NCBI GenBank assembly: GCA_964482535.1
Contig: CAYZXU010000002.1
Span: forward strand, 1-60,458
Direction: 5' to 3'
From: an uncultured Desulfobacteraceae bacterium
GTDB taxonomy: Bacteria; Desulfobacterota; Desulfobacteria; Desulfobacterales; BuS5
DNA length: 60,458 nt
Shown: positions 1,841 to 54,028 of the stretch, one piece after another
How the letters are laid out: every line of letters starts with the position of its first letter
How positions within the stretch are numbered: the first letter of the stretch is position 1
Program-made: the position numbers and the translations under genes
Notes under the pieces: model-generated
Told to the model about the DNA's origin: nothing
The model's database searches: none
The model's input: the letters and a program-made list of their open reading frames with translations, nothing else

Positions 1841-1850
1841 TTTCATACTC

Positions 1851-3839: not shown

Positions 3840-3844
3840 AATAA

Positions 3845-5998: not shown

Positions 5999-6028
5999 TA
6001 TATTATTTTTTCCCCTTTGAGCGAGCCC

Positions 6029-9526: not shown

Positions 9527-9546
9527 ACTTGATTTAGTTTGGATAA

Positions 9547-12500
9547 ATGTTTCTCAGGGGGAAACTTGTGTTTTACAAATTAAAAAAAATTGCGAAAAAA
9601 AGAAAAGAGAGCCGCAGGAACAAGCCCAGGGATTTTCAAACAAAAAGGCGCAGGATAAGATTTGAAGCCTTGGAAGACAGAATTCTTCTGTCGGCAGATA
9701 TTCCTATTATAGCCTATGACCTTGCATCTGATACAGCCTTGCCTGCTTTTGCAGAACAGGAACAATTGTTTCATGAAGAAACTCCTGCCCCGCAAATTCA
9801 ATTTGAACCTGAATCCATGGCAGATCAGATTGAAAACATTGGTAAAGAAGAGAATGTTCAACCGGATTATCAGGATAATATTAATGAAGATTATCTTGAG
9901 GATCAGTTTCAAATATCATCAGCCACCCAGGCAACTGTTAATTTTTATCCGGAAAACCCGGAAGAACAGGTTGAAAAAATCAATGAAGTTGAGAATGCCG
10001 AACCCCTGAAGGCAGATCTGCAGTTCGTTGATAATATCTATCCGAAGTACACAGAGGAAGGAATACTTGCATCTGAAATCATAGCCCGCCATCAAGTTCG
10101 TGAGATAATAATTGTTGATTCATCCGTTCCTGATTACCATGGCCTGGTTAAAGAGATAACTGCCGTTGACAGCGAAAGCGACCATACAGATGCAGGTAAT
10201 GATAACACATCCCCCGACATTTTTTCTTCTATCACGTCTTCTATTCAGGAGCATGAAACATTACAAACCGGAGAACCTATCCACAGCAGTTCGGAAAAAA
10301 CAGAGATAAGCCCTGAACGCGGCATATTTGTTCTTGATTCCGGACGTGATGGATTTGAGCAGATAACTGAAATATTAAAAAAATATAAAGACGTTGGCGC
10401 TGTTCATATAATATCCCATGGATCAGCAGGATTAATACGTCTTGGCTCAGGTAAGATTGATAAAGAAGATCTGGAACAAAACAGAGCCATAATTAAAGAC
10501 TGGGGCAAGGCTTTGACCCCTGACGGAGATATCCTTGTTTATGGATGCAGCGTGGCTCAGGGGAAAACCGGTATCGAATTTGTTGAAAGCCTGGGCAATT
10601 TAACAGGCGCTGATGTCGCTGCATCTGATGATGCTACGGGAAGTTCTGACCGTGAGGGCGACTGGATGCTGGAGTACAGCACCGGTATTATTGAAAGTAA
10701 GCCTCTTTTTGGGAGTACACCGGACTATAGCTATTTGCTGGAAGATATTATTGGAACGGATGATAACGATACTTTATCTGGCAATAGTGAACAGGATGAT
10801 ACGCTGACCGGCGGCGCCGGGGATGACACCTACGTATTTCAGGACAATTGGGGAGACGATACTGTTGTTGAGAATATTGATGAGGGAGTGGACATTCTTG
10901 ATTTTTCTAATATAATAACGGATCTCACCTTCACCCTGCATGACGATGGAACCGTTTCTGTAACAGACGGCACCAATATTATCAACAACGCTGCCGGTAT
11001 AGAAAAATTGGTTGGCGGCAGCGGCCATGACACCCTCGTGGGTCCTGATGGGGGAGCTATCTGGAATCTGACAGGGGACAACACGGGAATTGTCAATGGT
11101 TTCATATTCAGCGGCATTGAGGACTTGAAGGGTTCTGCCACCGGACAGGACACTTTTATAGTCGAAAATAAGGCCAAATGGTTAGGGATTATCGACGGCG
11201 GTGGTGGAACGGATATACTCGATTTAACACCTGTTGCCGATAATTTGATTTTTACGATTCAAGACAGTGGAATCGTTTCTGTCAACACTGCCCCGGATAC
11301 CTGGTCTTCTCTCGGCATTATCCCTGAAGATGTTCTTTCACTCCTGAGTGACGGTCTGGAAATAGATAGTGTCAAGAATGTCGCCAAACTGGTCGGAGGA
11401 AGCGCAGACAATACTTTTGCCTTCGAGGACAATGCCTCCTTCGCGGGAACCGTCGACGGTAGTACGGGTATTACAAACACTCTGGACTACTCGGCTTTTA
11501 CCGATGATGTCAATGTGAATTTTGCAAACAGTACTGCCACGGCAACACTCGGGATCAATAATATGAACCGGGTCGTGGGTGAAAAAGACAAGCTGACTGT
11601 CACCTGCACCGATGCAGGAGAAGAGACCATATCTTTTTCTAACGACAAAGGTGTGATAGCGAGTGCTTTAAGCTGGGTCGGGCTGGATAATATCGAAGGT
11701 ACGCCCGGCAACGATGTGCTTACAGGTAATGACGGTTTCAACATTATTGTCGGAAAGTCAGGAGATGATCTCCTGATGGGCGAAGGCGGCCCTGACACGT
11801 ATAAGTTCGCTGATGGCTGGGGTGCCGATACTATCATGGATAGCGGTGGAATTGATATTCTGGATTTCACCATGTGTACGGCGGATCTAACGTTTACCAT
11901 ACACAATGACGGCACGGTCAGCGTAACTGACGGCACCAATAAAGTATTTGCCACTGATGACATTGAAGTGTTTATCGACGGTCTGGGCAACGACAAATTC
12001 GTTTTTGAAGACGGCGCGACCTTTGACGGAATAATCGGAAAACCCAACTGGCTGCAGAAGCTGCTTGGTACCAGTTTGATAGATTATGGATCCAATACTA
12101 TGGATCTGTCTGCATACACAACACCGGTTTACGTAGATCTGGGCATGAAAATTCCATATCTGGAACAGATCCTCTTTCAGCATGCATGGCAAACCGATGC
12201 CGGTGATCCAATAGTTAATACTTTTCATAACATATCCAATGTCATAGGCGGTTCTGCGGGCGATTTTATCTGGGGCAGTTCTGAAGCCAATATTTTAAAG
12301 GGAGGCGCCGGTGATGATGTGATTTTCGGCCGGGGCGGCGCTGATACGTTTTATGGCGGTACAGGTAACGATACCTTGTATGGCGGAATGGGCATGGATG
12401 ACCTGATGACTGTTATCGGTCTGCTTAAAGACCCTGCTGCCATAGCGGATCAATTCCTTGCTTCAGCCCCGGAACTTTTAATGTACATTGCTGACGGGGG

Positions 12501-18500: not shown

Positions 18501-21500
18501 CTCTGCCGATGAAGTGGGTTTAGATACAGCCTCTTATGAAAATGCAGATGAAGGGGTCGTTGTCAGCCTGCAAACCGGAATGGGAACAGCCGGCGAGGCT
18601 GCCGGAGATGAATTGGTTGATATTGAAAACCTTACAGGATCAGCATTTGCTGACAACCTGACAGGTGATGCTGAAGATAATATACTCTTGGGCAATGAGG
18701 GGGATGATACACTGACCGGCGGTGACGGCTATGATACGGCCTCCTATATTACCAGTCCTGACGGAGTGAATGCGGAACTGGTTACCGGTGCTGCCGATGA
18801 CGGCTTTGGCTCAACTGACACCCTGAACGAGATCGAATATCTGCGCGGCTCTGATTATGATGATATACTTATTGGTGACAGTGGACACAATTATCTCAGG
18901 GGCGGATTTGGTGATGATATTCTCGACGGCGGCGCAGGTGACGATTTCATCGAAGGGGAATCAGGTGATGATACGCTTAAAGATATCAGTGGAGATGATA
19001 CCCTTGACGGAGGGTTCGGATCCGACACCGTTTCATATGAAGGAGCTACTTTCGATCTGAACGTTGACCTGACGATCCTGGAGGTTCAGAACACTCTTGG
19101 TGCTGGTGAAGACTTGCTTGAAAGTATAGAAAATCTCACTGGTGGTTTCGGTAACGATATGCTCATCGGCGACAGCGGTGACAATGTTCTCCGCGGAGGA
19201 GCCGGCATTGATACACTTATTGGCGGCCTGGGTGCAGACACATTGATCGGAGGCGCCGGCGCGGATTTAATATACGGACATTTTATCGACAACACGGACA
19301 AGGCGGAAGACGTTGATATTGATATGGCATCATATATTGATTCTGCTGCGGTAACAGTAAATCTGACCACAGCCGTTCATACGGGTGGCCATGCTGAAGG
19401 TGATCAACTGCATGATATAGCTGGAATTACAGGTTCGGATTTCGATGATACTATAACCGGTGATGATAAAGACAATATTTTGAATGGCGCTGCCGGCAAT
19501 GACACCCTCATTGGCGCAGGTGGTGATGATATTCTCATTGGTGGAGCAGGGGCGGACAGTCTCACAGGCGGCGATGGTAGTGATACGGCATCCTACGAGG
19601 GCTCTGACTCAGCAGTAAATATTAACCTGGACACCGGTGTATACAGCGGTGGTCATGCAGATGGCGATTCCCTTATCGGCATTGAGAATATCACAGGTTC
19701 CGACTATGCCGATGCCCTGGTAGGTGATGTAGGGGATAATATCCTCATTGGCGGCAAGGGTGATGATATCTTTTCCTTTCTGGATGAATTCCACACAATT
19801 GACTCGAATTTGACTGTGGGTCAGGATGTTTATGATGGAGAAGAGGGAGAGGATACTTTTCCCGATTTCAAGTCACTTACAATTAATGATGTATTTCCTG
19901 GCGGCTTCACTTTAAGGGATGTGGACGGCATCACTATTACTGATGCTGAACACAGCATGAAAGCTGCCGGTGATATCATATTCACTTCGGCCACATCCAT
20001 TACTGTTGAAAATGATGTAAGGCTTGAGTCAACCGGAGGTGATGTCATACTAAGGGTGAACGCCTATGTTGCCCCGAATATTATTAACGATTTGCAGAAT
20101 TTTTATACAAGTAATGTGTCCGTGGCCGAAATTACCATCGGTAATAATGTCAGCTTGCTGGCCGGAGAGAATGTGTATATAGCAACTTCAGCTACTACTA
20201 CACGCTCTGTGGGGTATGAGTATTATCGAGTCGGTCTGGCCGAAGGGCTGGACGCAATGAATATCGCCAATATAACAGGTGAAATGACATTTACACCTGC
20301 AAAAACAGGCGAGGCACCGGTTGGAGGCGGTGAGCCGCCGGTCACTACTCATGCCAAAATCGTCTGGCATTCAACTGATGAAGATTTTGGGGCTGCCGGC
20401 TTTGAAACAGGCCAGACCATCATAGTAGATGGTTCCAAACTGAATAATAATCTCTACAGAATTCAGGAGGTGGATGCAGATAATAATACCCTGGTTATTA
20501 CCTCTGTGGAGTCTCTTGCACCAGCCGGAAACCAGGACGAGAGAGCAGATGTCGGAACTGAACCCGTATATGGTAATGCGGAACTTCAGGAAGAGAAAAA
20601 TGCAGTCTATGTCACCATTCAGGAAGTTGAAACATCCCGTCTGAATAGAAATCCTGTAACCACTTTAAATAATTTTGGTGAAGAGGCAAGCCAGCTTGAA
20701 ACAAGCGGGGCAGCGCAGGCATTATTTGTTCCATTTGCCGCAGAAAAGATAACGTCATTATTATCACCAATGTTTAATACTGCTAAAGGCAGTATTATGA
20801 ATAAACCATCCGTCAAGCAGTTCTTGAAAAAATGGCCTGTGGCAAACCAGTTGAATCCTGCAGCGGCGCCTCCGGTACAAATTTTTGAATCAGATGCAAC
20901 TGCCAGGATCTCTATTGGTGATGTGGTGATCAATGCCGGCAGTGATGTGACCATCGAATCGAATGCCATATCGGAAAGTAAACTCACCACATCTCCCACG
21001 TTGTTCGGCATACCGGTTTCCTTCGGTGTGACGGTGGTCACGTCAGATGCAGAGGCCCTGGCAGATATTACGGGTACTGCGGTTATCACGGCAGGCGGCG
21101 ATTTTAAATTAACGGCCGATGTGTCAAACACACTGACCGAAAACCTGTCCATCACATCCAAAAAATTAATAACTCTCCCGCCCAAAAAAAAGCCGACGAC
21201 TACGTCCAATGCGAATGGCCAGCAGGGAAACAATAATCGTAGTTTGCTGGATAAGTTTAAACTCCAACTCGCTGTAGGTGTTGCGGCAGCATCTTCAAAT
21301 ACGAGCGCAACCGTGGGCGAGAATGTAACGATCACCGCAGCAAATGCAAATGTGACTGCGAATAACGATAATGATTTTGATTTGCGCGTGTCGGCCAATA
21401 CACCGGCGACGACCATGTCCAAGCCCGGCAAGCTCACAAGCGCAAAGAAAACACAGGACTTCCAGGTTTCGGCTGCGGCAAATGAGTCTATTAAGGTTAC

Positions 21501-24500
21501 GCTGACGCCTGCCGCTCAACAGGCTGCAACGTCAGGTACGACGCTCCAGCCGAAGTTCAGAATCAGACTGATCAAGCCGGACGGCACATTTGTGTCCATC
21601 GAATCTCTGGAGCGAATGGGATCAAAGCAGATTGCCACCTTTAAGGCGCCTGTTGCCGGAAAATATAAGGTGCGTATCGAGCTTGCAAATGAAACGACAT
21701 TTTTTGACGGTACTCAAACTTCCGGCAATCCCAAGGCTGCCACGTTCAATATTTCCATTCCCAGGATGACCGAAAATGATCTTAAATATGAACAACAAGA
21801 ATCTTTTGGTTCCGCTACTGCGATAGGTGTAAGTAACGTCATGTCCACCAGCACCGCGCGGATCGACGGCGACGTGGTCATCACCGGCGGAGATTTTTCC
21901 GTTAATGCCAAGTCCATTACCGGTGATTCGTCAGGGGATTCAATGGATCCACTGACGGGTTTGCCGCTGGATACCGACAAGAACCACATCAGTGTTACGG
22001 CAATGCTCAACAAAAAGACGGTGGCGCTGAATACCACGCGGGACAGCAGCAGCGATACAGCCACAAGAGGGTGGCGGTCTTTCGCCAATGTCGGGGCCAA
22101 GCCCACAAGTATCACGAACCCAACCGCCAAAAAAGAGCCTCCTGCAAAGGGCCCGAATCTTACCGGTGCCGTCGGTGTCGGTATCAGTCATAACCGGGCC
22201 GACGCCATTATAGGCGACGATGCAACAATTATCGTCAACGGCGGTAATATGTCGGTGGAAGGCTACGTGGAAGAGAATATCAAGGTTAACGTCAACGCCC
22301 ATGTCAATAAACCGTCCGAGTCGGTGAGCGGTGCCGCGGCCGTTTTTGTGGGAGACTTCAATAATAAGGCCAATGCCTGGATCGGCGACAATACCAAAGT
22401 TGACGTCACGGGTCTTCTCACGGTCAAGTCTAACTCTAAAATTCCAAACCAGATTACGTTGGATGACGACTGGGATGAATTCAAAAAGAAATTCAACGGA
22501 TTTGTCGCCACGGACAGCTGGATCGGGCCCTTTACCAGTTTCGGATTGGGACAACCCCCGGAACCCACCGCCCCGGTTGGTCCGCCACCGCCGCCGCCTG
22601 CAGGAATCGGTGCGCAGATCATCCAGAAAATCATGGACGGCACCATCGTTGTCGTTCAGGACAAGGCCACCAATTTTGCGCAGTCACTGGCGGCTGGCGC
22701 CACGAATTATACCACGGGCATCGGTGATTCATTTGGCGGCGCCGAGGGCACAAAGAATACCGAATTAAGAGAATTGATGAATTTTTTCCCCAAAATACTC
22801 GAAACACCCGATATTTTTCAGAAGTTCTCCAGCACCTTCGTCTCGGCCAGCGCCAAGACACAGGCCGACCCGAAATATTGGAATTCCCAGGCCTCGACCG
22901 ATGCAGAGAAGCAGGCCGCAGCGCAAAAGGCCGATAAGCACTGGTCCTTTGCCTTTTCGGGATCCATTAATGTTTTTCTGGTGCACAGCGAGGCCGATGC
23001 CCGGATCGGGAAAAATGCTGAGATCAACCAGAACACGGCGTACCAGAACTCGAAACAGGACGTGATCGTCACGGCACATTCCTGGCTGGAAACTATCAAT
23101 ATGACCGGTCTGCCCGCCCTGAACATTACCCAACTCCTTCTGGGCCGCAACACGATTATGCCGCCGCAGACCACGGCTAAAACCTTGACGCCCACACAAA
23201 AAGCGAACATGACGCCTGAACAGAAACGGGCGCTCAAAAGACAGAAAACCCACCAGACTATCAGTTCGCTGCCGATCATCGGCGTTCCCTACGGCATGGC
23301 ATATAATCTGTCCACATTGAAAGACAGAGGGGTCGGGCGAACCGCTAAAAAGGACCTGTTTCAGAGAATTGAAAGCCAGCTCATGTTTCCCACCAAGAGC
23401 GGAGGCAGCGGGCTTGGGGTTAATTTCCAGCACACGGGATACACGAATATCGCTAGGGCAACCATCGATGACAGTGCCGAGGTCTCTTCACAGAAGAATG
23501 TCCGGGTTGAAGCTGTAACACACAACCTCCTGCTTGATCTCACCGCGGCAGGGGGCGCCGCCGAAGGATTCCTGGCCCTGACCGGTGCCGGCACCTCCAC
23601 GGATATCGATAATACGTCCATCGCCACTGTGGGGGATGATGCCGTCATCTATGCCCGAAGCAACATCAATGTTGATGCGGACACGGACAACACCCTGGTA
23701 ACGTATACGGGATCGACCACCCACGGGGCGGACCTCGGGATGGGCGTTTCGGTGACGGTCAATAATGTGGATAATAATGTCGGAGCCTACGTGGGGGACG
23801 GACAGGGCTCCGATCCCGCCGTTAATATTTCAAGGGTTGAACTGTCCTTTGATGCGGTCGCCGGCACCCTTACCCGTTCTGACGGCGGCAGCTGGATAGC
23901 CGACAATTACGACATCGGTGACTGGATCCGCGTTTCCAACCTTTCGGACTCAACTGAGGATGGTCTTTTCAGAATCACAAGCCTGAATGCCACAATCCTT
24001 ACACTTGAAGAGGGAGCAAAGTCCCCTGGTAACGAAACATCGGACATCGTTGCGATTCAGAAGATGGGTAGATTCCAGGCGGACGGGGTTGCAGTTTCTC
24101 TTGATATTCCTGCTTTGCAGTTTGATTTTATTCATGATCCAAACGCGTCCGACCGTATTGTCCGTAACGACGGCGGTGATTGGGGAAAAGATGGCTTTTT
24201 TGCCGGTCAGAATATCACCATTGCCGGATCGGCGGATAATGATGACACTTACGAGATTGAAACCATAGACGGTGAAACTATTTATCTGGTGGATGCTGAT
24301 CTTGAGAACGAATTCTCCGTTACAGGAATTTCAGTGGTGTCTGATGCCGGTAAGGTCTCCGTGACCGCGAATAACAGCTCGGTTATTGTCACCACCAGTC
24401 TTTCCGGCTCGCCGCTGCTGCTGGAAATGAAAGACAGCGCCCCGCCCCCTTCGAGCAATGCCCAGAACGCTACCCAGAAGCGATCAATTGGCAACAAGGC

Positions 24501-33500: not shown

Positions 33501-36500
33501 GCCGACGATCGGGGCGACCGTAATATCCGCATCAGCCGCCATAGCCGGCGGATCTGTGGGTGTTGGAGTATCCATCGGGCTTTCCTTCGCCCGCAACCTG
33601 ATCGGCTGGCAACTGGGATTCGATACTCCATATAACTATACCACTGGCGATGAACCATCCAGTCTGGACAGTAGCGATAATATCCTTGTTCTCGGTGATC
33701 GCGTCAAGATCGAAGAGGGAGTCAGGGCCGGTGATATCTACGAGTATATCGGCCCGGATGCAACTATGTATCAGTATACAAGTTCTGACGTTGCTCCCAC
33801 GCTCCGCGAAGGCGATCTGGTGAAGGTTAACGACGGCTACGACGACAGCAAAGGAGCAGAATCATCCATATATCGCTATATCGGCAATGATCGTATCAAT
33901 GTCGACCTCAGTAACGAAATTTACGATGATTTTGATCCTGCTACTGATGAACTCTGGGAATCCGTTGGCAGCAGCAAGCTGTCCATGCAGGACTATGGCA
34001 ACACTGATCTCTGGAAGCAGGTGAACCTTGTGTCGGCGCCTGTGGAGGTACAGGCCTATGTCTTGAACTCCAGTGTTGAAGCAGTCGGTGACTTGAGTGT
34101 GACATCTACTTCGGATCAATCCATAGACGCGTTGGTGGTTGCCGGTTCGGCGGCGGCTTCGGGCGGTGGTGTCGGCGTGAGTGTCGCCGGTGCCGGTGCG
34201 GTTGCAGTAAACACGATTACGACCGATATCAAGGCGTTCATTGATTATGATTCAGGATTTGGTACCCGTTTGACGAACATCCATTCGGGCAGTGTGGCCA
34301 TAGAAGCAAAAGATACCTCAAGGATCACTGCTGTAACCGGAGCTGCGAGCCTGGCAGCAGGTTTTGGCGGCGTGGGTGTGGCTGTCTCCATCGGATTTGC
34401 AGGAGCCTATAATGAGATCAGCAATGAGGTTTCGGCTTTTATAGCTGATGCCGGCGTGACTACAACAGACGCTGCCGGTGCAATATCAATACATGCAATT
34501 GAGGGAGCGACAATTAACGCCCTTACAGCAGCAGCCTCTCTGGCTCTTTCAATCGGTGGTGTAGGTGTTTCTGTGAGCGGCGCCGGCGCGGCAGCTACCA
34601 ACGTTATTCTCACCACGACGAAAGCCTATGTGACGGACAGCACTCTTAACAGTGCAGGTGATGTCGTAATAGAGGCATCAGATACATCGACGATTAACGC
34701 AATTATATTGGCCTCAACAGCAGCAATCGCCGGCGGAGCAGTCGGTGTTGGTGTTTCCATCGGCGGTGCCTTTGCCACCAACTTGATTGGGGTGGCATGG
34801 AATCCTGCGGGAGCAGAGTCCTATGTGAAGGATTCAACAATAACGGCTGCGGGTACTCTCACACAGACGGCCACTGCCAAGGAAACCATTAAGGCAGCAG
34901 TGATTGCGACATCAGTGGCAATCGCTCCTGGCGGCGTTGGTGTTGCTGTCAGTGGGTCCGGCGTTCTTGCCATTAATATGATTACCGCGGATATCAAGGC
35001 ATTTATAGAAGGTTCAACAATTACTGCGGGGAGCGTAAACCTGACTGCAGACGACACCTCACGGATTCTGGCCTTTGCCGGGTCCGCCTCTGTAGCAGCA
35101 GCTTTTGGCGGTGTGGGTGTTGCTGTGTCTATCGGCGCCTCTCTGGCCCATAATATGATCGATAATGATGTTGCGGCCTACATTACGGGCAGCACTGTGA
35201 CCACGACCGCAACAGACGGCAGCCTCGAAGTCCATGCCATTGAACACTCTCAGATCAATGCGGTTTCTGCGGCAGCATCGCTGGCTGTTGCGATCGGCGG
35301 GGTAGGTGTCGCGGTCAGTGGGGCTGGAGCTGAAGCGACCAATGTCATCCTTACCAAGACCAATGCTTATGTCGAAGAGAGCGTTCTTGCCGCTGCGGGT
35401 GATGTTGTTGTAACAGCCGAGAGCCTGTCAGCTGCAGCTGAACTGAATGCCCTGGCAATGGCTGATGAAGATATTGCCAATGTTTTTGCTCAAAGCATGG
35501 ACGATGCCGGATCAACCGATGTTGACAACGAAGAGACTGATCTCATAGACGAAAAGCTTGCCGATATCGCCCTTGATAATACTTTTCTTATAGGGTTATC
35601 GGGGATATTGACCACGCAGGGTATCATGAATTCCGGTGCCCTGGCAGTAACTGTCCGCTCCGAGGGAGAGGAATGGTCGGTTACGGACAGGATAACCGGA
35701 TCCTCCTATATTATTGCCAGAGAAGGTGACAACTTTACAGTAACCATGCCGACCATCGGGGCCACCGTCATATCCGCATCGGCTGCGGTAGCCGGTGGAG
35801 TTGTCGGAGTCGGAGTTTCAATCGGGGTTTCTTTTGCAGCCAACCTGATCGGCTTTGAATTGGATCTCGGTTACCCTGCCGATTACACCACCGCGGATGA
35901 GCCTGCCCTTCTCGAACAGGGAAAGACGGTCAAGATAGGAGATGGCGTAAAAGAGGGCTATGTCTATGAATATATCGGACCAACAGTGGATATGTATCGA
36001 TACACCACGGATGACGGGACCAAATCGCTTAACAATGGTGATCTGGTGAAGGTGAATTCCAGCTACGAGCCAGATAGGGGTACCGGAACGGCAATTTACC
36101 GTTACATTGGAAATAATGGGAGCCAGGTCAATCTCGGCAACGCCAATTATAGGAACTCGGATTTGTGGGAGTCTGTGGGAAGCAGTAAACTGTCCATGCA
36201 GGACTATGGCAACGAAGATCTCTGGGAACATGTCAATCTCGTAAAAGCAGATGACTCTGCCCAGGTTCGAGCCTATATGTTAGATTCCAGCGTTGACGCA
36301 ATTGGAGGCCTAACCCAGACTGCTATCTCGGATCAGTCCATTGACGCTCTGGTTGTTGCCGGTTCGTCGGCGGCTTCAGGCGGCGGAGTCGGCGTGAGTG
36401 TCAGCGGCGCCGGTGCCGTTGCAATAAACACGATCACCACTGATGTTCAATCGTTCATTGAAGGCGATATGGCAATCGGTAACGGTGAAACAGCGGGCAT

Positions 36501-39500
36501 AAAGGCTGCCAGCGTGAGTCTTTTGGCTGAAGATACCTCGAGGATCACGGCTGTTACCGGAGCCGCGAGTCTGGCAGCAGGCTTTGGCGGCGTGGGAGTG
36601 GCTGTTTCGATCGGGGTAGCCGGGGCCTATAACCAGATCAGTAATAATGTTGCAGCCTTTATCTCCAAAGCTGACGACGGCGTGAAGACCACGGATCCTG
36701 CTGGTGCCATCACTATAGAGGCCATTGAGGCTGCCACCATCAACTCGCTGACAGCAGCGGCATCGCTGTCTGTTGCTATCGGCGCTGTTGGAGTTGCTGT
36801 TAGCGGGGCCGGAGCGGCTGCCACGAACGTTATTCTCACTACGACCAAAGCGTATGTGACGGACAGCATCCTTGTCAGTGCAGGTGATGTGACGATAGAA
36901 GCTTCGGACACATCAACAATTAACGCCATTGTGTCGGCATCAACGGCTGCCATCGCAGGTGGTGCGGTTGGTGTGGGCGTTTCCATCGGCGCATCGTTTG
37001 CCACCAACCTGATCGGTGCGGCAGGCAATCATGCCGGAGCACAGGCCTATATAAAGGATTCTACAATCACTGCCACGGGAGCCCTAACACAAACAGCTAC
37101 TGCAGAGGAAACCATCAGAGCGGCTGTGCTGGCCGCTTCAGTGGCAATCGCTCCGGGCGGTGTTGGTGTTGGGGTCAGCGGAACAGGCGTTCTTGCCATC
37201 AATATAATTACTTCAGATGTCAAGTCATTTATAACCAATTCAACAATTACTGCCGGAAGCGTAAACCTGACCGCGGACGACACCTCACGGATTATGGCGT
37301 TTGCCGGGTCTGTCTCTGCAGCAGCAGCCTTCGGCGGTGTTGGTGTTGCCGTGTCCATCGGTGTGGCCCTGGCCCACAATATGATCAACAATGATGTTGC
37401 GGCCTATATTATGGACAGCACTGTCGAGTCGACAATCGGCGACATCGAAGTGCATGCCATTGAACACTCCCAGATCAATGCCGTTTCTGCGGCAGCATCG
37501 GCTGCTTTTTCCGGAGCAGGGGTAGCGGTCTCGGTTAGCGGCGCCGGTGCGGAAGCAACTAATGTTATCCTTACAAAGACGAATGCCTATATAGAGAACA
37601 GTGTTATAACCAGTGCTGATGATGTGGATGTTACAGCCCGGAGCCTGTCAGCGGCACCTGAGATAGTGCCACTGGTTGTGACCGATGCCGAAAATTTTGC
37701 TGATAACATGGATGATGCCTCTTTCACGGTCGAGGATGATCCTGATACCGGCGGTACTGACGAAAGGGCTGACGACATTGACGCCGACAACAATTTCCTG
37801 GCCTCGTTAGCGGGGGTTTTAGCGTCGCAGGGCATCATGAATTCCGGTGCTCTGGCCGTAACAATCCGCGCCGAGGGCAAGGAATGGTCGGTCACGGACA
37901 GAATTACCGGGTCCTCTTATGTCGTTACCAGAGACGGCGGCAATTTCTCGGTGACCACGCCGACGATAGCTGCGACTGTGGTCGCCGCATCGGCTTCAGC
38001 AGCCGTCGGAGTGGTCGGTGTAGGGGCTTCCGTTGGGCTTTCCTTTGCTCGTAACCTGATTGGCTGGGAATTGGGATTCGATACTCCGTATGACTACACC
38101 ACAGGCAGTGAACCATCCAGTCTGCAACGTAGTGATATTCCCTTGATTCTCGGGGATTGCGTCAAGATCGAAGAGGGCGTCAGGGCCGGTGATATCTATG
38201 AATATATCGGTTCAGAACCCCTGGTTCCGGGGGAAGGCGAAACCACCGTCAACCTCAGAACACAGGACTACGCCAACACGGACCTCTGGAAACAGGTGAA
38301 CCTTGTGGCGGCGCCCGCCGAAGTGCAGGCCTACATAATGAACTCCAGCGTTGACGCAATCGGCGACTTGAGCGTGACAGCGATTTCGGATCAATCTATC
38401 GATGCGGTAGTGGTGTCCGGTTCCGTGGCAATCTCGGGCGGTGCGGTTGGTGTGAGCCTCAGCGGCGCCGGTGCGGGCGCGGTAAACACGATTACGACCA
38501 AGGTCAGGTCTTATATAGACGGTGATATTGCAATCGGAAATGGTGAAACCGCGGGCATAAAAGCTGCCAGCGTTATTTTGACGGCAGAAGACACATCTGC
38601 GATCACGGCTGTAACCGGAGCCGCAAGCCTGGCAGCAACATTCGGAGGTGTGGGTGTGGCCATAGCCATGGGCCTGGCCGTGGCTGATAACAGCATCAGC
38701 AATGTGGTCGAGGCATATGTAGGGTCATCCACAGTGAATACGACCAATGGCAATATGGCAATCCGGGCCAAAGAAGATGTCACAATCACCACAACATCTG
38801 TGGCAGCGGCGGCATCTGCCAGCGCAAGTATTTTCAGCGTTGCTGTCAGCGGCGGAGGGGCAACTGCCTTCAATACCATTGATACGGAGACCAGGGCATA
38901 TGTCAGCCAAAGCAATCTTGATATTATCGGGGATCTTGACATCCATGCGAGCGATATATCCACTTCAAGGGCATTGACGGGCTCTGCCTCGGTTGCTGCC
39001 GGTATTATCTCCGCGGCCATGGGCGGTTCCATTGCCAATGGGACGATTACATCCACAACAGAAGCCTATATCGATAATTCGAATGTCATTGCCGACGACA
39101 TCGCTGTAAGCTCAACCGCACAGCCGAAAGCCCAGGTCGACGTATATGGTGTCAACGCGGGCACCCTGGCCGTAGGCGTTTCAAGCGCCACTGCCACCGT
39201 GTCACCCATTGTGAATGCTTATGTTGGCGGCACGATCACTGCGGACAACCTCTACCTTTCCGCCACCCAACTTATGAGCGAGGACTCCGGCAAGGCCAGC
39301 GCCACCGGTTCGTCCGGCGGTCTGGTGGGCGTTAACGCGACTTTTAGTCGAGCGGAAAACAAAGGCACTGTCCGAAGCCAGATCAGAGATGACAGCACGC
39401 TGAATGTTGCCGGAGCTGTCCAGGTGAACGCGAATTCAACCAGCTACCAGACCGTCTCTGCCGAGGGTAAATGCTATGGCCTGGCCGTGGTCGGAGGAAA

Positions 39501-42500
39501 CCAGGCCAACGCTGTTTCAGATACAACCATCGAATCGCTGGTAGGCGATCGCGTCAGCGTGACGGCGGGCAGCTTGAGTATCAAGGCCACAGGCACGGAC
39601 ATCAATAAAGCTAATTCGGTTGCGGGCAGCGGCGGCGTGATTGCTATCTCCGCAGCAGAGGCCCGGACCGATACCTCCGGTCTTACACGAACATCTGTGG
39701 GCTCAGGAACAACAGACAGGTTCATCAACGTAGACAGCCTCGAAATCATCTCAGATCACACCTCTGTGTTTAACGCCCGGGTCGACAGTTCTTCAGGCGG
39801 TGTGATCGATGCCGCGGGAGCGGATATTTCCAACATCGTCAAGCCCAGGGTTATAGCAGAATTCGAGGAAGATGCCCTTATCAAGATCCGCGATCTGGAT
39901 GTCCAGGCCAACAACCGCATCCGAAAAGATTGGCTGGCTGGCGGAGCCTATAACATTATTTCAGCCTCGGGCGGAATAGGGACATTTCCGGCAGGCAGCA
40001 GTGTAACCAACATCAACAATCAGACCACTATTTCCGTTCACAACGGTGCCAATATCCAGGTGGAAGGAGATCTTGTTAATCCTGGTGAATTCAAGTTCAC
40101 AGCTTTCAACGACGTTATCGCCAGAGACAGGGCCAAGCTTGATTCGGGCGGCGCACTGGCCACGGCCTTTACCGAGTCGATCATTAATAATACCAACGCG
40201 GCCCAAATTCAAATCAATAATGCCGACCTGTCAAGCGTCGGTGACCTTAATCTGTCCGCCCTTACGATTGCTGATGTGGAGACCAAGACCAATGTCAAGA
40301 CTTACGGCCTGGCGGGTTTTGCCGAAGGATCATCCGAATCGAATGTCTATGTTAACAACAGTATTAATGTTCGTGAAGGAGCCGTGTTGAGGGCAGACGG
40401 TGACGTCAACCTTAATGCCGGAAGGGATGGTGTACGCGTAAGTGATATCAAAGCCAAGGCGCAGACCGATCTGTGGAACAAGACCGCCTTTCCAATCCCA
40501 TCCAACCCCACGGGTAACGCTATTATCTTTGCCAACAGCAATATCAATATCGATTCAGGGGCCTGGGTAGGAAGTGTACAGGATGTGAACCTGAAGGCAG
40601 TAGTAAGCGATCTCAGCGCGCAGGGAAACTGGAGTTACCAGGATCTTTATATGGGTGCCATCGAGGATATTGCCAATCTGTTCGGGGCCGATATTTCCCT
40701 CAAGACGACCGGCGGCTATGACGTGGAGGATCTTACTACGACCGTAACGGTGGATGGAACGGTTGAGGCAGGGATTCAAAACAAACAGTTCCTGATCATA
40801 GACGAAAATCTCATTGCCGATGGTGACATTTCCCTGCAGGGTAATCCGGTTCTTGACTTCCAGCACGTTGAAGCGCGCGATACCATTACCCGAGACAGCG
40901 GCAGCTGGGTTGATGACGGGTTTACAGTCGGGGCGTTTGTCACGATTTCGGAGACAGACGACAATGACGGATCATACCGGATCGACGAAATTTCCGCTGA
41001 TGGCTTCACGCTCTATCTGGATCCGGGATATCACCTGGATAATAATGCGTTGGATAATGATGCCGAGGTAAGCCAGGGCATTGAGATGTGGGGTAAACCT
41101 ACCGTTGATTTCGGTAATGATGTTGATCGTGGAACAATAACACGTTCTTACTGGAGCTTCAGTGAAGACGGATTTGCTGTTAACCAGAAGATCGTGGTAA
41201 ACGGGGCCAATGAAAATGACAGGTTCTTTACCATAAACGAGATTTCCGCTGATGGCCTCACGCTCTATCTGAATCCGGGCGAAACTCTTGTTGTGGGAAA
41301 TGATGTCGAGAATGTTTCCATAAAGGTGGTAGAGGACCAGATCTTATCCATGACCGACCTGACCCTGGATTTTGATCAGGTGGACGGCGATTCCGACACG
41401 ATCACCCGCTCTATCGGCAGTTGGCTTGATGAAGGCTTTGCCGCGGGCCAGATCATCGAGGTTGAAGGCACGACGTCCAATGACGGGATCTATCGAATTG
41501 AATCATTGGATGCTCAAATTCTGACTCTGAATACGACGGATGAGCTTCAAATTGATGAACCGGGTATCGCGGGAGCCACAATAAGCGTGACCCAGGGTGC
41601 GAAGCTCGATCTGACCGACCTGACCATTGATTTTGATCAGGTTGCCGATGCCCCGGATACCATTACCCGTTCCATGGGGAGCTGGTTGGATGACGGATTC
41701 CTGGCAGGACAAACCCTGACCGTTGCCAATACGGCGAACAATAACAGTACATTCATTATTGATTCGATATCCGCCGCCGGCAGGGTTCTCTATCTCGCTG
41801 GGAACGTCCTGACCGATGAACCTGATGTGACAGGGGATTCAGTAGAGGCGACCGCGGTTGCTGGGCCGGGTCTGGATCTGGATTTCAATGCAGTGGCTGA
41901 TTCCATAACCCGGAATGCGGGAACCTGGAGTGACAACGGATTTGCCGTGGGCCAGACCATTACCGTTGCCAATACAACAAACAACAACGGGACGTACACC
42001 ATCGCTTCGATTGCCGGCGCGGTTCTGACTATAGCCCAGGACAGCCTGACTGACGAAGATGACGTGGCAGTGGCAACGGTTAGAACCAATGCCTTGTCCA
42101 CAGGGGAACTGACCCTTGATTTTAATCAAGTGGTTGACGCTCCTGACACGATCTCCCGCAATATGGGCAGCTGGCTGGATGACGGTTTTGCGGCGGGCCA
42201 GATCATTGTGGTTGACGGGACCACGTCCAATGACGGGATCTATCGAATTGCCTCACTGGATGCCCTCACACTGACGCTGGTTGAAGATGATGAGCTTCAA
42301 GTTGATGAACCGGGTGTCGCGGGAGCCACAATAAGCGTGACCCAGGGTGCGAAGTTCGATCTGACCGACCTGACCATTGATTTTGATCAGGTTGCCGATG
42401 CCCCGGATACCATTACCCGCTCCATGGGCAGCTGGATTGACGACGGTTTTGCTGCGGGTCAGGTTGTTACCATTGCCGGATCAAATAACCAGGGATCGAA

Positions 42501-45500
42501 TAATAATGACGGCTCCTATATAATTGATGAAGTCTCAGCCGACGGACTTACTCTTTCCCTGAATATTTACGATGAACTCTCTGATGAGCAGGATGCTCAG
42601 GGTCTGGACATTCTGGCTGCCGGTGAAAAGGTTTCATCTTTCCAGAGCGCTGGACTGAACCCCTTAACCCTTGAACATGTCGATACAAGAGACACAATAA
42701 CAAGAGAAACAGGCAATTTTACTGATGACGGTATTGTCGAAGGGCTGGTCATACAAGTCTCGGGGACAGACGACAACAACGGCTCCTACGAGATAGACGA
42801 GGTTTCCGCGGATGGTTCCATTCTCTACCTGACACAAACGAAAAAGCTGGTTACCGAGAACAACGTAGCCGGTGTATCAATGACAGCGCCCGCGCCGCGT
42901 ACGATCGGTATCTACACCAATACCATGACCGGCACTCCCTTCCTGACCTTTACCCGTGTCAGTAACGGACCCGATATCATCACAAGGTCCGCAGGGAGCT
43001 GGCTGATCGATGAATTCAGGGAAGGGCAGACAATCACCGTTACCAACTCAGCCCAGAATCTGAATGACGGAAAATACACGATCAACAATATTTCGGAAGA
43101 CGCCCTGGTTCTCACACTGGTTTCGACGGACGTACTTGTAGATCAATCCAATGTCTCGGGAGTGGATGTCACGGGCAAGGGAGTCAGCGATGCCATCGGT
43201 GATGTGGGTTTTACGGTTGAAGACCTGGCCCAGAACCTGACCAATGAGATAATACGGCTGGAGAAGCTTAAAATCGAGCACCATGGCAATAACACGGCGG
43301 TCCAGGGGTATGAAACCCAGATCAAACAGATGATGGATCAGCTTGAAGAACTCAAACTGGCCAAGGAAGAGAATGGACAACTTGTACCTATCCAGGGTTA
43401 TCAGGGTGTTTATATTAATGTGCCCGACATCAAGGCCAGTTCTGGTGATATCAATATTATCGGCAGTAGTCTGTCCGGTACAGGACGGCTGGTGAGCGCC
43501 GGGGACGCCCGGATCGACATCATTAACAAGAGTCCCTATTACCTGCGTATCAACAATCTGATCATTCCGGGGGACTATGGCGGAAGGATTATCTATAACG
43601 GTGTAAAGGTCGTTGACAAAGCCCAGATAGAAGCAAGAAACCTGAAGGACATGGGCGAGGTCGCGTTTACAGAAGTGATTTCTTCCGGCTTAGCGGCGGA
43701 ACCGATGATCAATGTGGAGAGCACCTTTAACCCTGCGACATCAAGTGATCCTGACATCAAAAACATGCCGGCGCCTGATATTGTAGTCCAGGGCAGTATT
43801 TTAAATATCCTGGGCACGGCCAGGCTGTTTAACAATAAGGGCAGTATCATCGTCAAGGAAGCTATTACGGCCAAGACCGTCGATATTGACGCGGGACGCG
43901 ATTTTGTGCTCACAAGTGATCACTTCTTCCATGTGGGCGGGTTCCCGAGCAGCAGCGCTCCTGACCTTTCCTTTGCTGCGGGCAGCGTTTCGAACAACCA
44001 GGTGCACTTTGGTTCGATCCACCAGCTCGCCAACGGCCAGGCCGTCCGCTACAGCAGCGAAGGCAACCCTATCCTCGACGGTCTAACCGGCGGCAACCTC
44101 TACTATGTGATCTTCGTTGATTCCAACTCGATCCAACTCGCCGAAACCTCCGGCGGGGCGGCCATCACCATCACCAATACCGATGCCGAGGGCACCCACC
44201 GGATGACGCCGGTTTCCATGGTCATGCCAGCCCAGGATATCGGCACCCGTCAGGCCTACGATTGCGGCCGTTGGGTCTGGCAAACCATCTCCTTGGGCAC
44301 CTTCAAGTTTTCCTTTCTGTTGCCGCAGCTTGTTACACGCACTGACACCATTGCCCTCGATTACGCCCATGGCTTTACCGCGGGGGAGAAAGTGCGCTAC
44401 GACGGCGGCAGCGGAACCGCCATCGGTGGCCTTGAGGACGGGGAAACCTATTATGTGATCCCTGTTTCCGCCAAGTCCTTCCGGTTGGCAGCGACCAAAG
44501 AGGACGCCCTCCAGATACTCGGCGGCAAGAAATTTGATTCCGGCGGTTCTTACAAGTCGGGCTACATCGACAAGATCATTTCCCTGAACCCGGGTGTCAG
44601 CTCCGGCAGCGACCACTTTTTCGAAACCCAGGTCTCATCGTCGATAATCGCCGGCAACAACGTTTACATCAGCGCCCGTTACCTGAACATCAACGGCACC
44701 ATCCAGAGCGGAAAACCTGTCCGTGAGGTAACCCTGGAATCAGGTCTCAACAGCCTGATCGCTGATTTCCGCAACAATCACATTGACAGTGATCCCAACC
44801 TTCTGTTCCTTACAACCAATGAAGGGACAGGCATCGAAACCTGGTATAATTACAACGAAGACCGGATCGAATTGGATAATGTGATCGTTGAGGGCGGCTA
44901 CATGCGTCTGGCCGGCCACATCATGAGCACCGGAAACGGCCTGCTCAGGGTAGTCGATGGGTTCGGTGAGATTACGGTCGATAATCTGACCAACTATGAC
45001 CTGTTCATCAACAATCTTAATACAGGCGGGGACGGGATCGAAGGAAAGATAGAGATTGTTGATCTCGCCACCAGGAATGTCAATATTCCGAACATTAATA
45101 CTACTGTTTTCGAAAGAGAAGACGGGGACAACCGGATAGACTCTTATCAACCCCTTGCCGGCCAGAGATACGTCTATGTTACTGGAACTGACATGTCTAT
45201 CACAACTACCAAAGAGTGGATCACCGAAGACCTCTGGGGTATCGACTGGCTGGTGAAAGATCCAGGTGAGCAGCCCAATCATGTTAGCGTTGTAAAGGGC
45301 GACTCCACCCCATTGCCTGATGGCGATCTGATAAACTGGCAATATACTGATGGAACTATCGCCAGTTCGAACAATATTATCACAGCAAATTCATACAAAT
45401 CAGGAGATGAATATCGTATCTCCACCCGTAGATGGGATACGAAACACGGCTGGTGGGTTTTCTCTACCACCAAGCATCACCTGGAAAAGGTATACCAGCG

Positions 45501-48500
45501 GACAGACAAGAAATTCGAGAACGTGAGCATCAAGTCCGATCATCTCATCGACATACAGTTTATCGGTAAGGATGAAGGCACGATCACTGTGGATTCAAAT
45601 ACAGATGTCCTGATCGGCGGCGCCATTGTTAATAAAGAAGGAAGCACAAACATCACCAGTGCAGGTGTTATTGCCCAGGCCGCGAATACGGTCCTCCTTC
45701 AGGGAGACGCTGTTACCCTGGATGCTGGAAAAGGTATAGGTGTATTGATCGGCGATCAGGGTGAAGTAATCGAAGCCCGTATCCTGATGGACATGGAAGA
45801 AAACGGAATTATTAATGTTTCGACCGATACAGGCGATATCCTTCTTACCGAAATGACAGGCGACATGGTTATCGGACAGATGGTCACAGGAAATGGAAAC
45901 ATCGGCCTGGTCGTTGACGGCAATATCCTCTCCACTGATAATACGGTCGTTATAAGCGGTAATAACATAGACCTGATGGCGGGAGTCGGGAATATAGGCC
46001 AGGAAGGGAACCTGCTCAGGGTTGACAGCGGGGAAAGCCTGACGGCTATAGCCTCGGGGAATATCTACCTGGAAGAGACTATCGGGGACATCTACCTTAA
46101 TAAGATAAAATCCATAGGCGGCGATGTTCATCTCCTGGTGACTGACGGTGATTTGAGAGATGCCAACACCAATGATGCCAGGGATACACGGGCTATTGCA
46201 GAGCTGACCGGGCTCTGGGAGGCCATGCAGCTGACCGACGGTTATGGAGCAGGGAATGCATTACAGCAGAATATAGAGGCCTACGAAGGCATTAAAACCC
46301 GAGAGTATCATAAATACTGGCAATACCGCAATCAGCAGGCAGATCCTGGTGTATACGACCCCGATTTTCAGGTAACACTCACAGCGGATGAAGAGGCTTC
46401 TTACAGAAATTATTATGAAGAGAAGGGAATGGATGAGGATGAGATAAAGGGTGCCATTACCACGATTGAACAAAAGCGAACGGATGAATATCACAACCTG
46501 CACACGGTTTACGGCGAGATGGGTGATGAACAGAATTCTGATTATGCCTATTCCGTTGATGTGGGGACAGATGAATATGACGAACTTACGGCAGGTTATG
46601 CCTGGACAGACGATGAACTGAAGAACACTGTCAGCGGAGGTCTTTTGAGGCTTAAGGTCGATACCGAAACCAGGATCGAAGAGCCCAATATTATTGGACA
46701 GAGTATATTCGTTGATGTCCTGAACGGCGGGGTCGGGATATCGGAGGATCCCTGGACTATAGATCTCAGTCAGGAACTTAGTGATGATGATAAGATCTAT
46801 CTGGCGGCGGCAGAGAGAGATGATGTGACTTTCTTTGATTCAGAGGACAATATAATCGATCCCACTGACAATTCCGTTGAAGCTGCGGCTATTATTATTG
46901 AACTTCGTGAGGATATTGATGTTGAAGTTACAGGTAGTGTTACCATAAACGCCGCTGATCATATCTATCTGGGCGGTGAGCAGGATATCAATATTGACCG
47001 GATCGCAACCGGCGGAATGATTCGCATCAAGGGTGGTGAAGGAATCTATAATGTATACGACGGCGATGTGCCTGATACAGAAGCCAATATTTCCGGGGCC
47101 GGTCTGATTATTGAAGCGGCCGGGGATAGTATCGGAACTGCGGAAAACAGGGTGACCATTAATCTGGGCGATAACGGTACTCTGACGGCCAGGGCCAGAG
47201 AGGATATCTACCTCTATGAACAGGCCGATGATCTGGGCTTGAGAGGTGATTTGAATGTTGACACGGTTTATGCCGAATCCGGTCATATATATCTCGGCTC
47301 GGAGAACTCCATTAATGACGGCCTGGAAAACGATCAATGGAATATCAAGGGGCTGACCCTTGACCTGGAAACAGGTGAAGAGATCGGGACCCAGAATAAT
47401 TTTCTGGAGATCGACCTGGACGCGGAAGGTTTTCTCAACGCTACAGCCGGTGGGGATATCTTTGTCGCGGAAACAGCGGGCGATTTTAAGGTAGGGCAGG
47501 TTATTTCCACAACCGGCAATGTGTCCCTGACTTCACAGATTTCAATTCTGGATGAGGTTGAATTGGATGATCTCGAAGTAGATGTGGCGGGGAATAACAT
47601 CATCCTGAACGCTCTGATGGGTGGCATCGGAGAAACCGGTAATGATTTTGACGTGGATACCGCCTATTCGGGCGAGGGAGCCCTGTCATCAACCAGTTCC
47701 TTAAATGCCTATATTGTTGAACCAATGGGTCCGTTGTATCTGAATCAGATTTCCACGGATGAAGAACAGACTGCCTTTATTGGTGCGTTATCGGGACGAA
47801 TTTTAAACGGGAATTCGGATGAAAGTGAAGATAATGTTCTTTCCGGCTCCACGCGTCTTTACGCATCTTCAGATATCGGAGCCAGTGACAAACATTTAAA
47901 AACATCAGTCGGCACTTTACAGGGTTGGTCTTTGAACGGTTCCATCTGGATTGATAATACCGGTGAACTCTTTATCGATCAAGTGGGTGAAGGCGATTTC
48001 GGAATTGATGCCGAAGGGCCTGTCCAAATTACTACTCACAGTCCTTTAACGGTCAACTATATAGTAAGATCGAATAATGATATCGTTCTGACAGCGGGAG
48101 ATAGCGCCGATACTGGTGACGATATCACGGTGGCAGGCAACGGGGTTGTGCAATCCGCTAAAAATGTGATTCTGCAGGCGGGAGACAATGTGATCATCGA
48201 AGAAGGTGCCACAATAGAGGCCTATGATTCGTTGAATGAAACGTACGGTCTGGTTCAGTTCTATGTGGATTACGGGGACGTAGACCCTGATGGCGGTGTC
48301 CTTTATATGCGAGAGGCGGTAATCGGCAGTGAATTACAGATTTTTGGCGAAAGCGACGATGATATCATCCCACTAACCTTTGTGACTCTGCCCACAACCG
48401 TGCAAACCATGGAAGGCGAAGATATTATTTATCTGGGGAGCAATGCAGAACCTGACAGCAATACGGGTGGTCATGTTCAAAATATTGCTGAGCTGTTAGA

Positions 48501-50700: not shown

Positions 50701-50710
50701 GGGTTTTATC

Positions 50711-54005: not shown

Positions 54006-54028
54006 ATTATAAAAGAAAGCAATCTTAA

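Follow-up and report, generated by a model that had tools for sequence, protein, structure and literature searches.

A 13,571-codon gene for a putative RTX surface fibre and its linkage to a short-SecA and membrane-fusion adaptor cassette in an uncultured Desulfobacteraceae bacterium

How could a protein of more than one megadalton that carries no Sec-type signal leave a cell with two membranes? To our knowledge, export of this kind is known only for type-1 systems driven by ATP-binding cassette (ABC) transporters. The question is raised by a stretch of 60,458 nucleotides from an uncultured Desulfobacteraceae bacterium (contig CAYZXU010000002.1, assembly GCA_964482535.1), which was analysed at its full length and is called the window here. 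A single open reading frame (ORF) of 13,571 codons, at 9547..50262 on the plus strand, takes up most of it; its product is referred to below as the giant. A gene for a TolC-family channel lies on one side of this ORF and a gene for a small DUF3467 protein on the other, and an operon that encodes three membrane-fusion adaptors and a short SecA-like ATPase runs in the opposite direction from TolC. The operon and the DUF3467 gene together are called the cassette. We infer that the giant is probably a Ca-binding surface fibre, exported in a TolC-dependent, type-1-like manner by this cassette with its SecA-type motor. More tentatively, we propose that the cassette and TolC could form a previously undescribed two-membrane export pathway, in which a SecA-derived ATPase, not an ABC transporter or SecYEG, would drive megadalton RTX fibres marked by a C-terminal tag; such a pathway would be widespread in the Desulfobacterota and Proteobacteria and would correspond, in free-standing form, to the SecA modules fused into giant proteins of the Omnitrophota.

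Linkage of the giant gene to a conserved cassette

The TolC-family outer-membrane channel is encoded directly upstream of the giant, with a gap of 20 nt (8141..9526, plus strand; TIGR01844 type_I_sec_TolC, 294 bits against a cut-off of 225; PF02321, E = 1.9e-62), and a near-consensus promoter-like site is found before it at 8009-8038. Divergent from TolC, four genes form an operon on the minus strand. The first product (6029..7951, 640 residues) combines a GAF domain (PF01590, E = 3e-9) with a HlyD-type membrane-fusion adaptor (PF13437, E = 1.6e-17). The second (3845..5998, 717 residues), called the M50-adaptor below, is a putative M50-like intramembrane metalloprotease fused to a membrane-fusion adaptor, assigned from its motifs and about six transmembrane segments. 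Its motifs HEFAH (residues 210-214) and NGNPLLRFD (residues 304-312), which fit the HExxH and NxxPxxxxD patterns of M50 peptidases, are invariant in four sequences that are 50-93% identical to the protein of the window, and its N-terminal 100 residues or so are weakly PqqD-like (E = 0.0027). The third gene encodes the short SecA (1851..3839, 662 residues) and the fourth a small membrane-fusion adaptor with an N-terminal transmembrane or signal-like segment (1097..1885, 262 residues as the maximal ORF; PF16576, E = 3.5e-18; TIGR01730, 123 bits). At the other end of the giant gene, the DUF3467 protein of 112 residues (50362..50700, plus strand; PF11950, E = 9.8e-22) follows 99 nt after the stop codon, and no terminator-like site was found between the two genes. 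No NCBIfam model specific for the cassette components was matched, and we found no published description of the cassette in the literature; a "SecA-like" protein in a paper on polymorphic toxins proved to be unrelated. An earlier, sequence-only reading of this DNA was confined to the ORF and had missed both TolC and the cassette.

The 662-residue protein is recognized as a SecA relative by PF07517 (E = 2.5e-100), PF01043 and PF21090 and aligns to residues 24-601 of the Bacillus subtilis SecA, retaining both the Walker A and the DEAD motif. It is made of nucleotide-binding domain 1, the preprotein-binding domain, nucleotide-binding domain 2 and the start of the scaffold helix, and it ends at about B. 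subtilis residue 600-610. It was tried as a canonical SecA and rejected, the full scaffold, the wing domain, the two-helix finger and the C-terminal tail being absent and the score lying under every NCBIfam SecA and SecA2 cut-off (PRK12904, 611 bits against 814). Homologues of this short form number in the thousands, the best 120 of them being 52-94% identical and 601-714 residues long, mostly about 660-670, and the same neighbours were seen on three contigs that carry it. The M50-adaptor family is similarly large, with 4,047 cluster representatives (50% identity) at E <= 1e-30; among the best 150 almost all are collinear and most are about 715 residues long.

One genome per GTDB species was scanned with an alignment of the M50-adaptor, giving 80 cassette loci from the Desulfobacterota, the Gammaproteobacteria, Methylobacterium and Methylorubrum, the Comamonadaceae, the Latescibacterota and others. 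The classes thus include the Alpha-, Beta- and Gammaproteobacteria, the last with Kistimonas, Oceanicoccus, Thiotrichaceae, Woeseiaceae and Litoribrevibacter as carriers. In nearly all loci the genes stand on one strand in the order DUF3467, GAF-adaptor, M50-adaptor, short SecA and small adaptor. DUF3467 heads the cassette in most of them, and the GAF-adaptor is present wherever its position was sequenced. The closest relative is a 7.1-kb metagenome contig (L003; ENA ERZ23495476, scaffold_1888), on which the GAF-adaptor, M50-adaptor, short SecA and small adaptor are 93-94% identical to those of the window at the protein level; all other cassette matches are at most 60% identical and mostly from Desulfobacterota (50-60%). 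Two gammaproteobacterial loci that lack DUF3467 have a conserved protein of about 278 residues before the cassette (L038, 7209-8036; L042, 2601-3437), with the motif …LEPMQA.F…RRNLTGF.AVNR…ELELIYLHLQS.QNF….

Large ORFs accompany the cassette in other genomes. Upstream DNA of 3 kb or more was available for 58 loci. In 44 of these an ORF of 600 residues or longer ends just before the cassette, and 31 of the 44 ORFs run past the fetched DNA, typically with more than 2,400 residues visible; the true giants bear RTX motifs. About ten of the 44, from high-GC loci (Methylobacterium, Methylorubrum and similar), lack RTX motifs and are likely to be spurious. Desulfoluna limicola, whose genome is complete, encodes a protein of 9,009 residues directly upstream of the cassette. 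The C-termini of the cassette-adjacent giants match that of the window in two places, namely an RTX block with the domain that follows it and a terminal element of about 50 residues, called the tag here. A hidden Markov model (HMM) of the tag was built from 11 sequences and run against a background of all 13,049 ORFs of 83 loci. It matched 37 ORFs, each of which abuts the cassette, and each match lies 0-50 residues from the C-terminus.

The other end of the giants is visible in fewer loci. The four visible N-termini (L022, L080, L084 and L085) read "...FEALEPRILLSADLG" and then DUF4347, as in the window. The divergent layout of the window, with TolC directly upstream of the giant, recurs in L022. 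TolC also stands directly before the giant in L084 and L085, the loci with the closest homologues of the head, and in L080 the giant is divergent from the cassette and TolC lies downstream of the small adaptor. The giant with its tag is thus linked to DUF3467, the three adaptors, the M50-like protein and the short SecA, and to TolC where the 5' end is visible.

A candidate export route and the ordinary type-1 alternative

From these parts a route can be proposed. The giant would be exported unfolded and in one step through TolC. The place of the ABC transporter would be taken by the M50-adaptor fusion and the two further adaptors, which may form a conduit through the inner membrane and periplasm, while the soluble short SecA would supply the ATP-driven pushing. 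The C-terminal tag is a candidate recognition signal and the LEPR leader at the N-terminus, described below, may be a second one. The small DUF3467 protein could have an accessory or holding role, the GAF domain might gate the system, and the M50 active site, DUF4347 or both may trim or release the fibre. RTX proteins fold outside the cell on Ca2+ binding, and the giant would do the same, giving a very long surface fibre or adhesin.

Several points weigh against this scheme. The proposed roles of the cassette proteins come only from their domains and from synteny. The M50 part of the M50-adaptor scores below threshold (PF02163, 21.8 against a gathering cut-off of 27.2; NF041824, 137 against 300). 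DUF3467 was considered as a SecB-like protein, but this did not hold: its AlphaFold2 model (predicted local distance difference test, pLDDT, 67), with four strands and one long helix, is suggestive, but the best Foldseek match in the PDB has an E-value of 2, SecB is not found and the PDB profile search is empty. The head made of the LEPR-XLL motif and DUF4347 is far more widely distributed than the cassette (Planctomycetota, cyanobacteria, Pseudomonas), and therefore it is not a cassette-specific signal. The C-terminal RTX block is a classical feature of type-1 substrates. Only 60 kb of the genome are visible, and a HlyB/HlyD pair could lie elsewhere. Finally, the Methylobacterium and Methylorubrum loci (L043-L056, L062, L071, L074 and L075) have the full cassette and no adjacent giant RTX ORF; the substrate of their cassette, if any, must be elsewhere or different.

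Some of these points bear directly on the strongest alternative, according to which the giant is an ordinary type-1 substrate: an ABC transporter and a HlyD protein encoded elsewhere would export it through the adjacent TolC, and the cassette would serve maturation, release, anchoring, regulation or other cargo. The layout of the protein, with RTX repeats and a C-terminal RTX block and tail, is that of a classical substrate, and the TolC scores as a type-I TolC. The Methylobacterium cassettes without an adjacent giant also speak for it, as does the small part of the genome in view, and in LapA-type adhesins release is handled by separate genes, LapG and LapD. Against it, no ABC ATPase motif is found in the 60-kb window, and within 10 kb of the cassette or of the giant's end an ABC-ATPase-like ORF occurs in only 1 of the 83 loci. 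What a linked type-1 system would comprise (HlyB-type ABC transporter, HlyD and TolC) is represented in the window by TolC and the three adaptors. The three membrane-fusion adaptors together with an ATPase make a parts list of the export type and not of the maturation type, and the pairing of tag and cassette is exclusive in the sampled loci. We consider this alternative unlikely, and export of the giant by the SecA-type cassette remains our preferred reading.

Modules, fold and integrity of the giant

The protein was scanned as tiles of 1,000 residues against Pfam and NCBIfam and was compared with itself by BLAST and with self-built HMMs; the order and boundaries of the modules given in the sequence-only reading proved essentially right. 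The leader (residues 1-57) is a strongly basic N-terminus that ends in RIRFEALEDRILLSADIP and holds the LEPR-XLL motif at residues 38-55 (9658..9711, on the plus strand like all modules; NF012209, 25.9 bits against a cut-off of 17), with a weak match to PF07595 Planc_extracel ("Planctomycete extracellular"). No hydrophobic Sec-type signal was found at the N-terminus and no real transmembrane segment anywhere in the protein. After an acidic linker (residues 58-253) comes the DUF4347 domain (residues 254-390, 10306..10716; PF14252, E = 1.8e-48), and then an RTX region of about 3,000 residues (about 400-3430, 10744..19836), in which Ca-binding nonapeptide blocks are arranged in diverged modules of about 80-100 residues (PF00353, E = 3e-16 to 1e-80 per tile; self-BLAST). 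The motif GGxGxDxUx is present 77 times in the giant, 71 times before residue 3500 and four times in the C-terminal block, and the protein thus has the Ca-binding nonapeptides that define RTX proteins.

The next part (residues 3431-5400, 19837..25746) is heterogeneous, with Lys/Thr-rich linkers, early LktA-type repeats, three stray domains of about 80 residues and the two poly-Pro hinges that had been noticed before, now placed as runs at residues 4337-4352 and 5226-5236. The PPC match in this region is below threshold (PF04151, E = 5.6e-4, 21.2 bits against a gathering cut-off of 25.9; residues 3969-4044, nt 21451-21678, profile positions 2-68 of 70). Repeats of the LktA_tand_53 type, counted with a self-built HMM, number 70 across residues 3778-9971 and are dense from residue 5402; the dense array (residues 5402-9971, 25750..39459; NF012206, 198-278 bits per tile against a cut-off of 50) holds 59 of the 70 at a spacing of about 60-65 residues. 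It includes a higher-order repeat of about 740 residues in three copies (nt 31693-38229) and the DNA repeat families D3-D14. The array of an "85-aa domain" that had been described resolves into nine tandem copies of a domain of about 70-82 residues at a spacing of about 85 (residues 10435-11210, 40849..43176; self-built HMM, E = 1e-28 to 1e-34 per copy). Twelve copies of this domain (67-82 residues) are present in all, the three outside the array being at residues 3600-3666, 4765-4837 and 4858-4932, and no Pfam family matches it.

A short stretch at about residues 11225-11275, judged by eye, is helical. It is followed by some 1,800 residues without a family match (11280-13100, 43384..48846), in which weak internal repeats are seen at residues 12000-12700; between 43.4 and 48.3 kb, where further beta-helix-like repeats had been proposed, only these and a sub-threshold Fil_haemagg_2 match were found. 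The C-terminal RTX block and the domain after it (about residues 13100-13330, 48844..49536; PF00353, E = 1.1e-9) match RTX regions of CyaA and HlyA in the PDB, and in phmmer comparisons with other C-termini the block keeps its position in the cassette-adjacent giants of other genomes. The tail is charged and Lys/Glu-rich. The tag itself (residues 13512-13562, 50080..50232; E = 4e-24 with the tag HMM) lies about 180 residues past the terminal RTX block and reads ...AAGYLGWNLVS...FRKLDRKMKDRRFMYWNNG; classical type-1 substrates carry their uncleaved secretion signal within the last 60 or so residues, behind an RTX block. PDB sequence searches found no relative of the middle 6,900 or so residues (3431-10300), and the RTX block was the only match for the last 3,271 residues.

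We take the DUF4347 head for a putative cysteine protease of the clan-CD-like type. Across 62 aligned sequences, H291-G292 and G333-C334 are invariant (His291, nt 10417-10419; Cys334, nt 10546-10548), and the LEPR-XLL motif is present in at least 39 of 61 DUF4347 homologues. With the DUF4347 profile, H-G falls on "IATHGTAG" and G-C on "LYGC" in chain G of PDB 9QPE, a chain that bears the label of a DUF4347 protein. This chain is Tce1 (PA0256) of Pseudomonas aeruginosa, a putative cysteine protease according to its authors; in a superposition its His186 and Cys240 fall on the catalytic dyad of the protease domain of TcdB, with TcdA and the RtxA of Vibrio cholerae compared alongside (PMC13323088). 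The motifs around His291 and Cys334 of the giant align with His186 and Cys240 of Tce1. Judged by these motifs, the head is a putative toxin-type cysteine protease-like domain. It shares with the protease domains of TcdA, TcdB and MARTX and with the type VI secretion effector Tce1, itself a DUF4347 member, a His-Gly...Gly-Cys arrangement that aligns with the proposed dyad; unlike in those proteins, it is N-terminal on a fibre of 13,571 residues and stands neither between effector modules nor alone.

The likeness of the head suggests a second alternative, that the giant is delivered, in the manner of MARTX, as a toxin or a carrier of effectors, and that DUF4347 would process itself in the target cell and free the cargo. 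The kept dyad and the RTX repeats would fit, and giant proteins of the DUF4347/haemagglutinin type of Chlorobium chlorochromatii are reportedly transferred to the partner cell (10.64898/2026.03.19.712371). However, Pfam, NCBIfam and PDB sequence searches of the 13,571 residues revealed neither effector nor enzymatic domains, the model NF033943 RTX_toxin gives at most 260 bits against a cut-off of 1000, the protease-like domain is N-terminal and not between cargo modules, and about 80% of the giant is repeat scaffold. The giant was accordingly rejected as a member of the MARTX toxins, in which RtxA-type repeats flank effector domains and an internal cysteine protease domain, and delivery of a cargo seems to us very improbable. 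A DUF4347 protein of C. chlorochromatii CaD3 (P0195) is among the homologues of the head. The giant proteins of this species are reported to flank a TolC-like gene and to carry no known export signal, and the same preprint mentions a secA (Cag_1676) that was acquired recently (10.64898/2026.03.19.712371).

For the main repeat region the sequence-only reading had proposed beta-helix-like repeats (25.7-40.7 kb), which the predicted structure does not bear out. AlphaFold2 was run on residues 5671-6172 with an alignment of nine non-overlapping paralogous segments of the same ORF and gave a model with a pLDDT of 92 and a predicted TM-score (pTM) of 0.88. It has 16 strands of about 25 residues, each repeat of about 62 residues contributing two long antiparallel strands with a strand of 3-4 residues in the turn. 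A Foldseek search of the PDB found no relative of this model, the best match being curli CsgA (E = 0.12, TM-score below 0.1); the classical beta-helices (Ag43, Hbp, autotransporter, tailspikes) were at E > 1, and a fold search of BFVD gave no meaningful match. With their antiparallel strand pairs and the lack of a beta-helix match, the main repeats do not qualify as a classical parallel right-handed beta-helix, in which coils of about 18-25 residues consist of three short parallel strands. As far as strand pairing goes, the model shows a beta scaffold made of antiparallel hairpins, and it has no solved relative.

The gene that encodes all this is real and intact, and selection keeps its frame. 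It begins with ATG, has a single terminal stop, and the window contains no N. Over the same 40.7 kb the other two sense frames hold 645 and 1,123 stops and the antisense frames 249, 379 and 817, the longest antisense open stretch being 334 codons, and with the local base composition the probability of 13,571 stop-free codons arising by chance is about 1e-297. The claim of one uninterrupted frame is therefore borne out, and the computed mass of 1,400,181 Da falls within the 1.4-1.5 MDa that had been estimated. The protein has a pI of 4.05 computed from the translation, is rich in Gly, Ala, Asp, Ser and Thr and has only eight Cys. That it is among the largest bacterial proteins is true in a loose sense but was overstated: predicted bacterial proteins of more than 30,000 residues (10.1101/2023.11.21.568195) and one of 26,805 residues in C. 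chlorochromatii (10.64898/2026.03.19.712371) have been reported, and UniProtKB holds more than 41,000 proteins above 5,000 residues (PMC11573180).

The heavy repeat content that had been described is real for the protein but not for the DNA. Tandem Repeats Finder reports a single array of three 27-bp units. Among dispersed repeats the best show 62-88% identity over stretches of up to 300 nt, the top one being 88% over 189 nt. The repeats have diverged at the DNA level and collapse or expansion in the assembly is therefore unlikely, which largely removes the worry about copy number raised earlier. The pressure on the frame was estimated from paralogous blocks within the giant, the only close relative (the metagenome contig at 93-94% identity) spanning the cassette and not the giant gene. 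The ratio of nonsynonymous to synonymous substitution rates (dN/dS) is 0.17-0.19 at a dS of 1.0-1.6 among the three higher-order copies of about 2.2 kb (31693-38229) and 0.33 between paralogous copies of a 750-nt block of the ~80-aa domains. By these ratios the giant has evolved as a constrained protein, as the sequence-only reading had supposed. An artefact of assembly or a pseudogene in decay, in which the length of the ORF would come from mis-joined or expanded repeats and not from a real product, is thus hardly credible: mis-assembly is common for giant repetitive genes, and the nearest relatives on long-read metagenome contigs are strings of broken ORFs, but one frame is open throughout while the others hold hundreds of stops, the DNA repeats are few and diverged, the paralogous blocks are constrained, independent homologues have a matching head and tail, and the 9,009-residue counterpart stands in the same context in the complete genome of D. 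limicola. On the two long-read ENA contigs (L084 and L085) the giant is split into 8-10 consecutive RTX-bearing ORFs; these splits are most likely frameshift errors of the assemblies and show why intact examples are rare.

The base composition of the gene is a mosaic. The GC content at third codon positions (GC3) is 0.31-0.37 in all nine neighbouring genes, 0.33 in codons 1-300 of the giant and 0.28-0.34 in codons 13201-13571; in the interior of about 12,900 codons it is 0.42-0.72, with the peak at codons 11401-11700. The two ends, which are those expected to contact the host machinery, look native by this measure and the interior does not. The mosaic suggests either a chimeric origin, the interior having been imported or recombined from a GC-richer relative, or biased conversion among the repeats.

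The remaining genes of the window lie outside the giant and the cassette. Between DUF3467 and a XerC/D-type tyrosine recombinase (51362-52273, plus strand), just downstream of the giant and DUF3467, is a Cys-rich ORF of 232 residues without a family match (50624-51322, plus strand), whose maximal frame overlaps the end of DUF3467. Farther on (52356-60457, plus strand), a PfaD-like enoyl reductase (549 residues, NMO and FabD helical insert) precedes an ORF of at least 2,143 residues that begins ketosynthase-like and runs off the end of the window; the locus resembles a cluster for polyunsaturated fatty acid or polyketide synthase. At the other edge (1-1097), inspection of the six-frame translation by eye gave an XRE-type helix-turn-helix protein (minus strand), a Phd/YefM-like antitoxin with a RelE/ParE-like toxin (plus strand), and apparent fragments of further genes. 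Scans of the window with Rfam and for tRNA genes gave no hit.

Relation to known systems and implications

The known proteins closest in kind are LapA of Pseudomonas fluorescens and MpIBP of Marinomonas primoryensis. Like the giant, they are very large, acidic, repeat-built surface proteins with RTX near the C-terminus and no Sec signal, a TolC-family channel, and membrane-fusion adaptors encoded nearby. In contrast to them, the giant has no linked ABC transporter and no detected Ig-like (BIg) extenders or LapG-type retention module (the libraries lack a model for retention modules), while it has a LEPR-XLL and DUF4347 head, a shaft of LktA_tand_53 repeats, a family-specific C-terminal tag and a truncated SecA as the linked ATPase. 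No Ig-like, VCBS or cadherin-type match was given by Pfam or NCBIfam anywhere in the protein, and membership of the LapA/MpIBP adhesins, for which Ig-like extenders are the mark, was not upheld.

A second comparison is with the transporters that combine a C39 peptidase, an ABC pump and HlyD. Peptidase-containing ABC transporters of this kind cleave the leader during export. Both they and the present system have a protease joined to an export component and a substrate with a conserved N-terminal leader; the difference is that the protease here is a putative M50-type intramembrane metalloprotease and that its fusion partner is an adaptor instead of an ABC pump. That the LEPR leader is cleaved is conjecture.

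Since the giant passes the cut-offs of NF012209 ("LEPR-XLL domain-containing protein"), NF012206 ("tandem repeat-containing filamentous protein") and PF14252 (DUF4347), annotation pipelines can already name it. These are sequence labels without a studied function, however, and none covers the cassette, the tag or the repeat fold. The giant belongs to an annotated but unstudied class of proteins, and its putative export system looks like a new form of type-1-like secretion.

The nearest precedent for the motor is found in giant proteins of the Omnitrophota and Actinobacteria, into which SecA motor and preprotein-binding domains without scaffold or wing are fused and were proposed to export them (10.1101/2023.11.21.568195). 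In both cases a SecA DEAD motor with the preprotein-binding domain, lacking scaffold and wing, is tied to a giant extracellular protein, and in both the shafts are antiparallel-beta structures without a known relative; the repeat region modelled here recalls the "antiparallel beta helix" tubes predicted in the Omnitrophota giants (10.1101/2023.11.21.568195). The difference is that the short SecA of the present system is a separate protein of about 660 residues in a five-gene cassette with three adaptors, an M50-like protein and TolC, that the giant has no transmembrane regions and that the hosts are diderm Proteobacteria and Desulfobacterota.

Should the cassette prove to be a maturation or regulation module only, the finding would shrink to one more giant RTX surface protein, though a well-documented one. 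Independently of the export question, the shaft core of about 4,600 residues (5402-9971) is confidently modelled as a fold without a solved relative, and the DUF4347 head ties these fibres to the toxin-type cysteine proteases. The presence of the cassette in cultivable bacteria (Desulfoluna, Kistimonas, Litoribrevibacter, Desulfobulbus, Methylobacterium) makes the proposal genetically testable. If the linkage means what it appears to mean, there would be a second solution to the export of megadalton proteins without a signal across two membranes, built on a reduced SecA motor together with a membrane protein of the M50 type, and this would explain why SecA motor domains occur within giant proteins or beside them in phyla that are not related.

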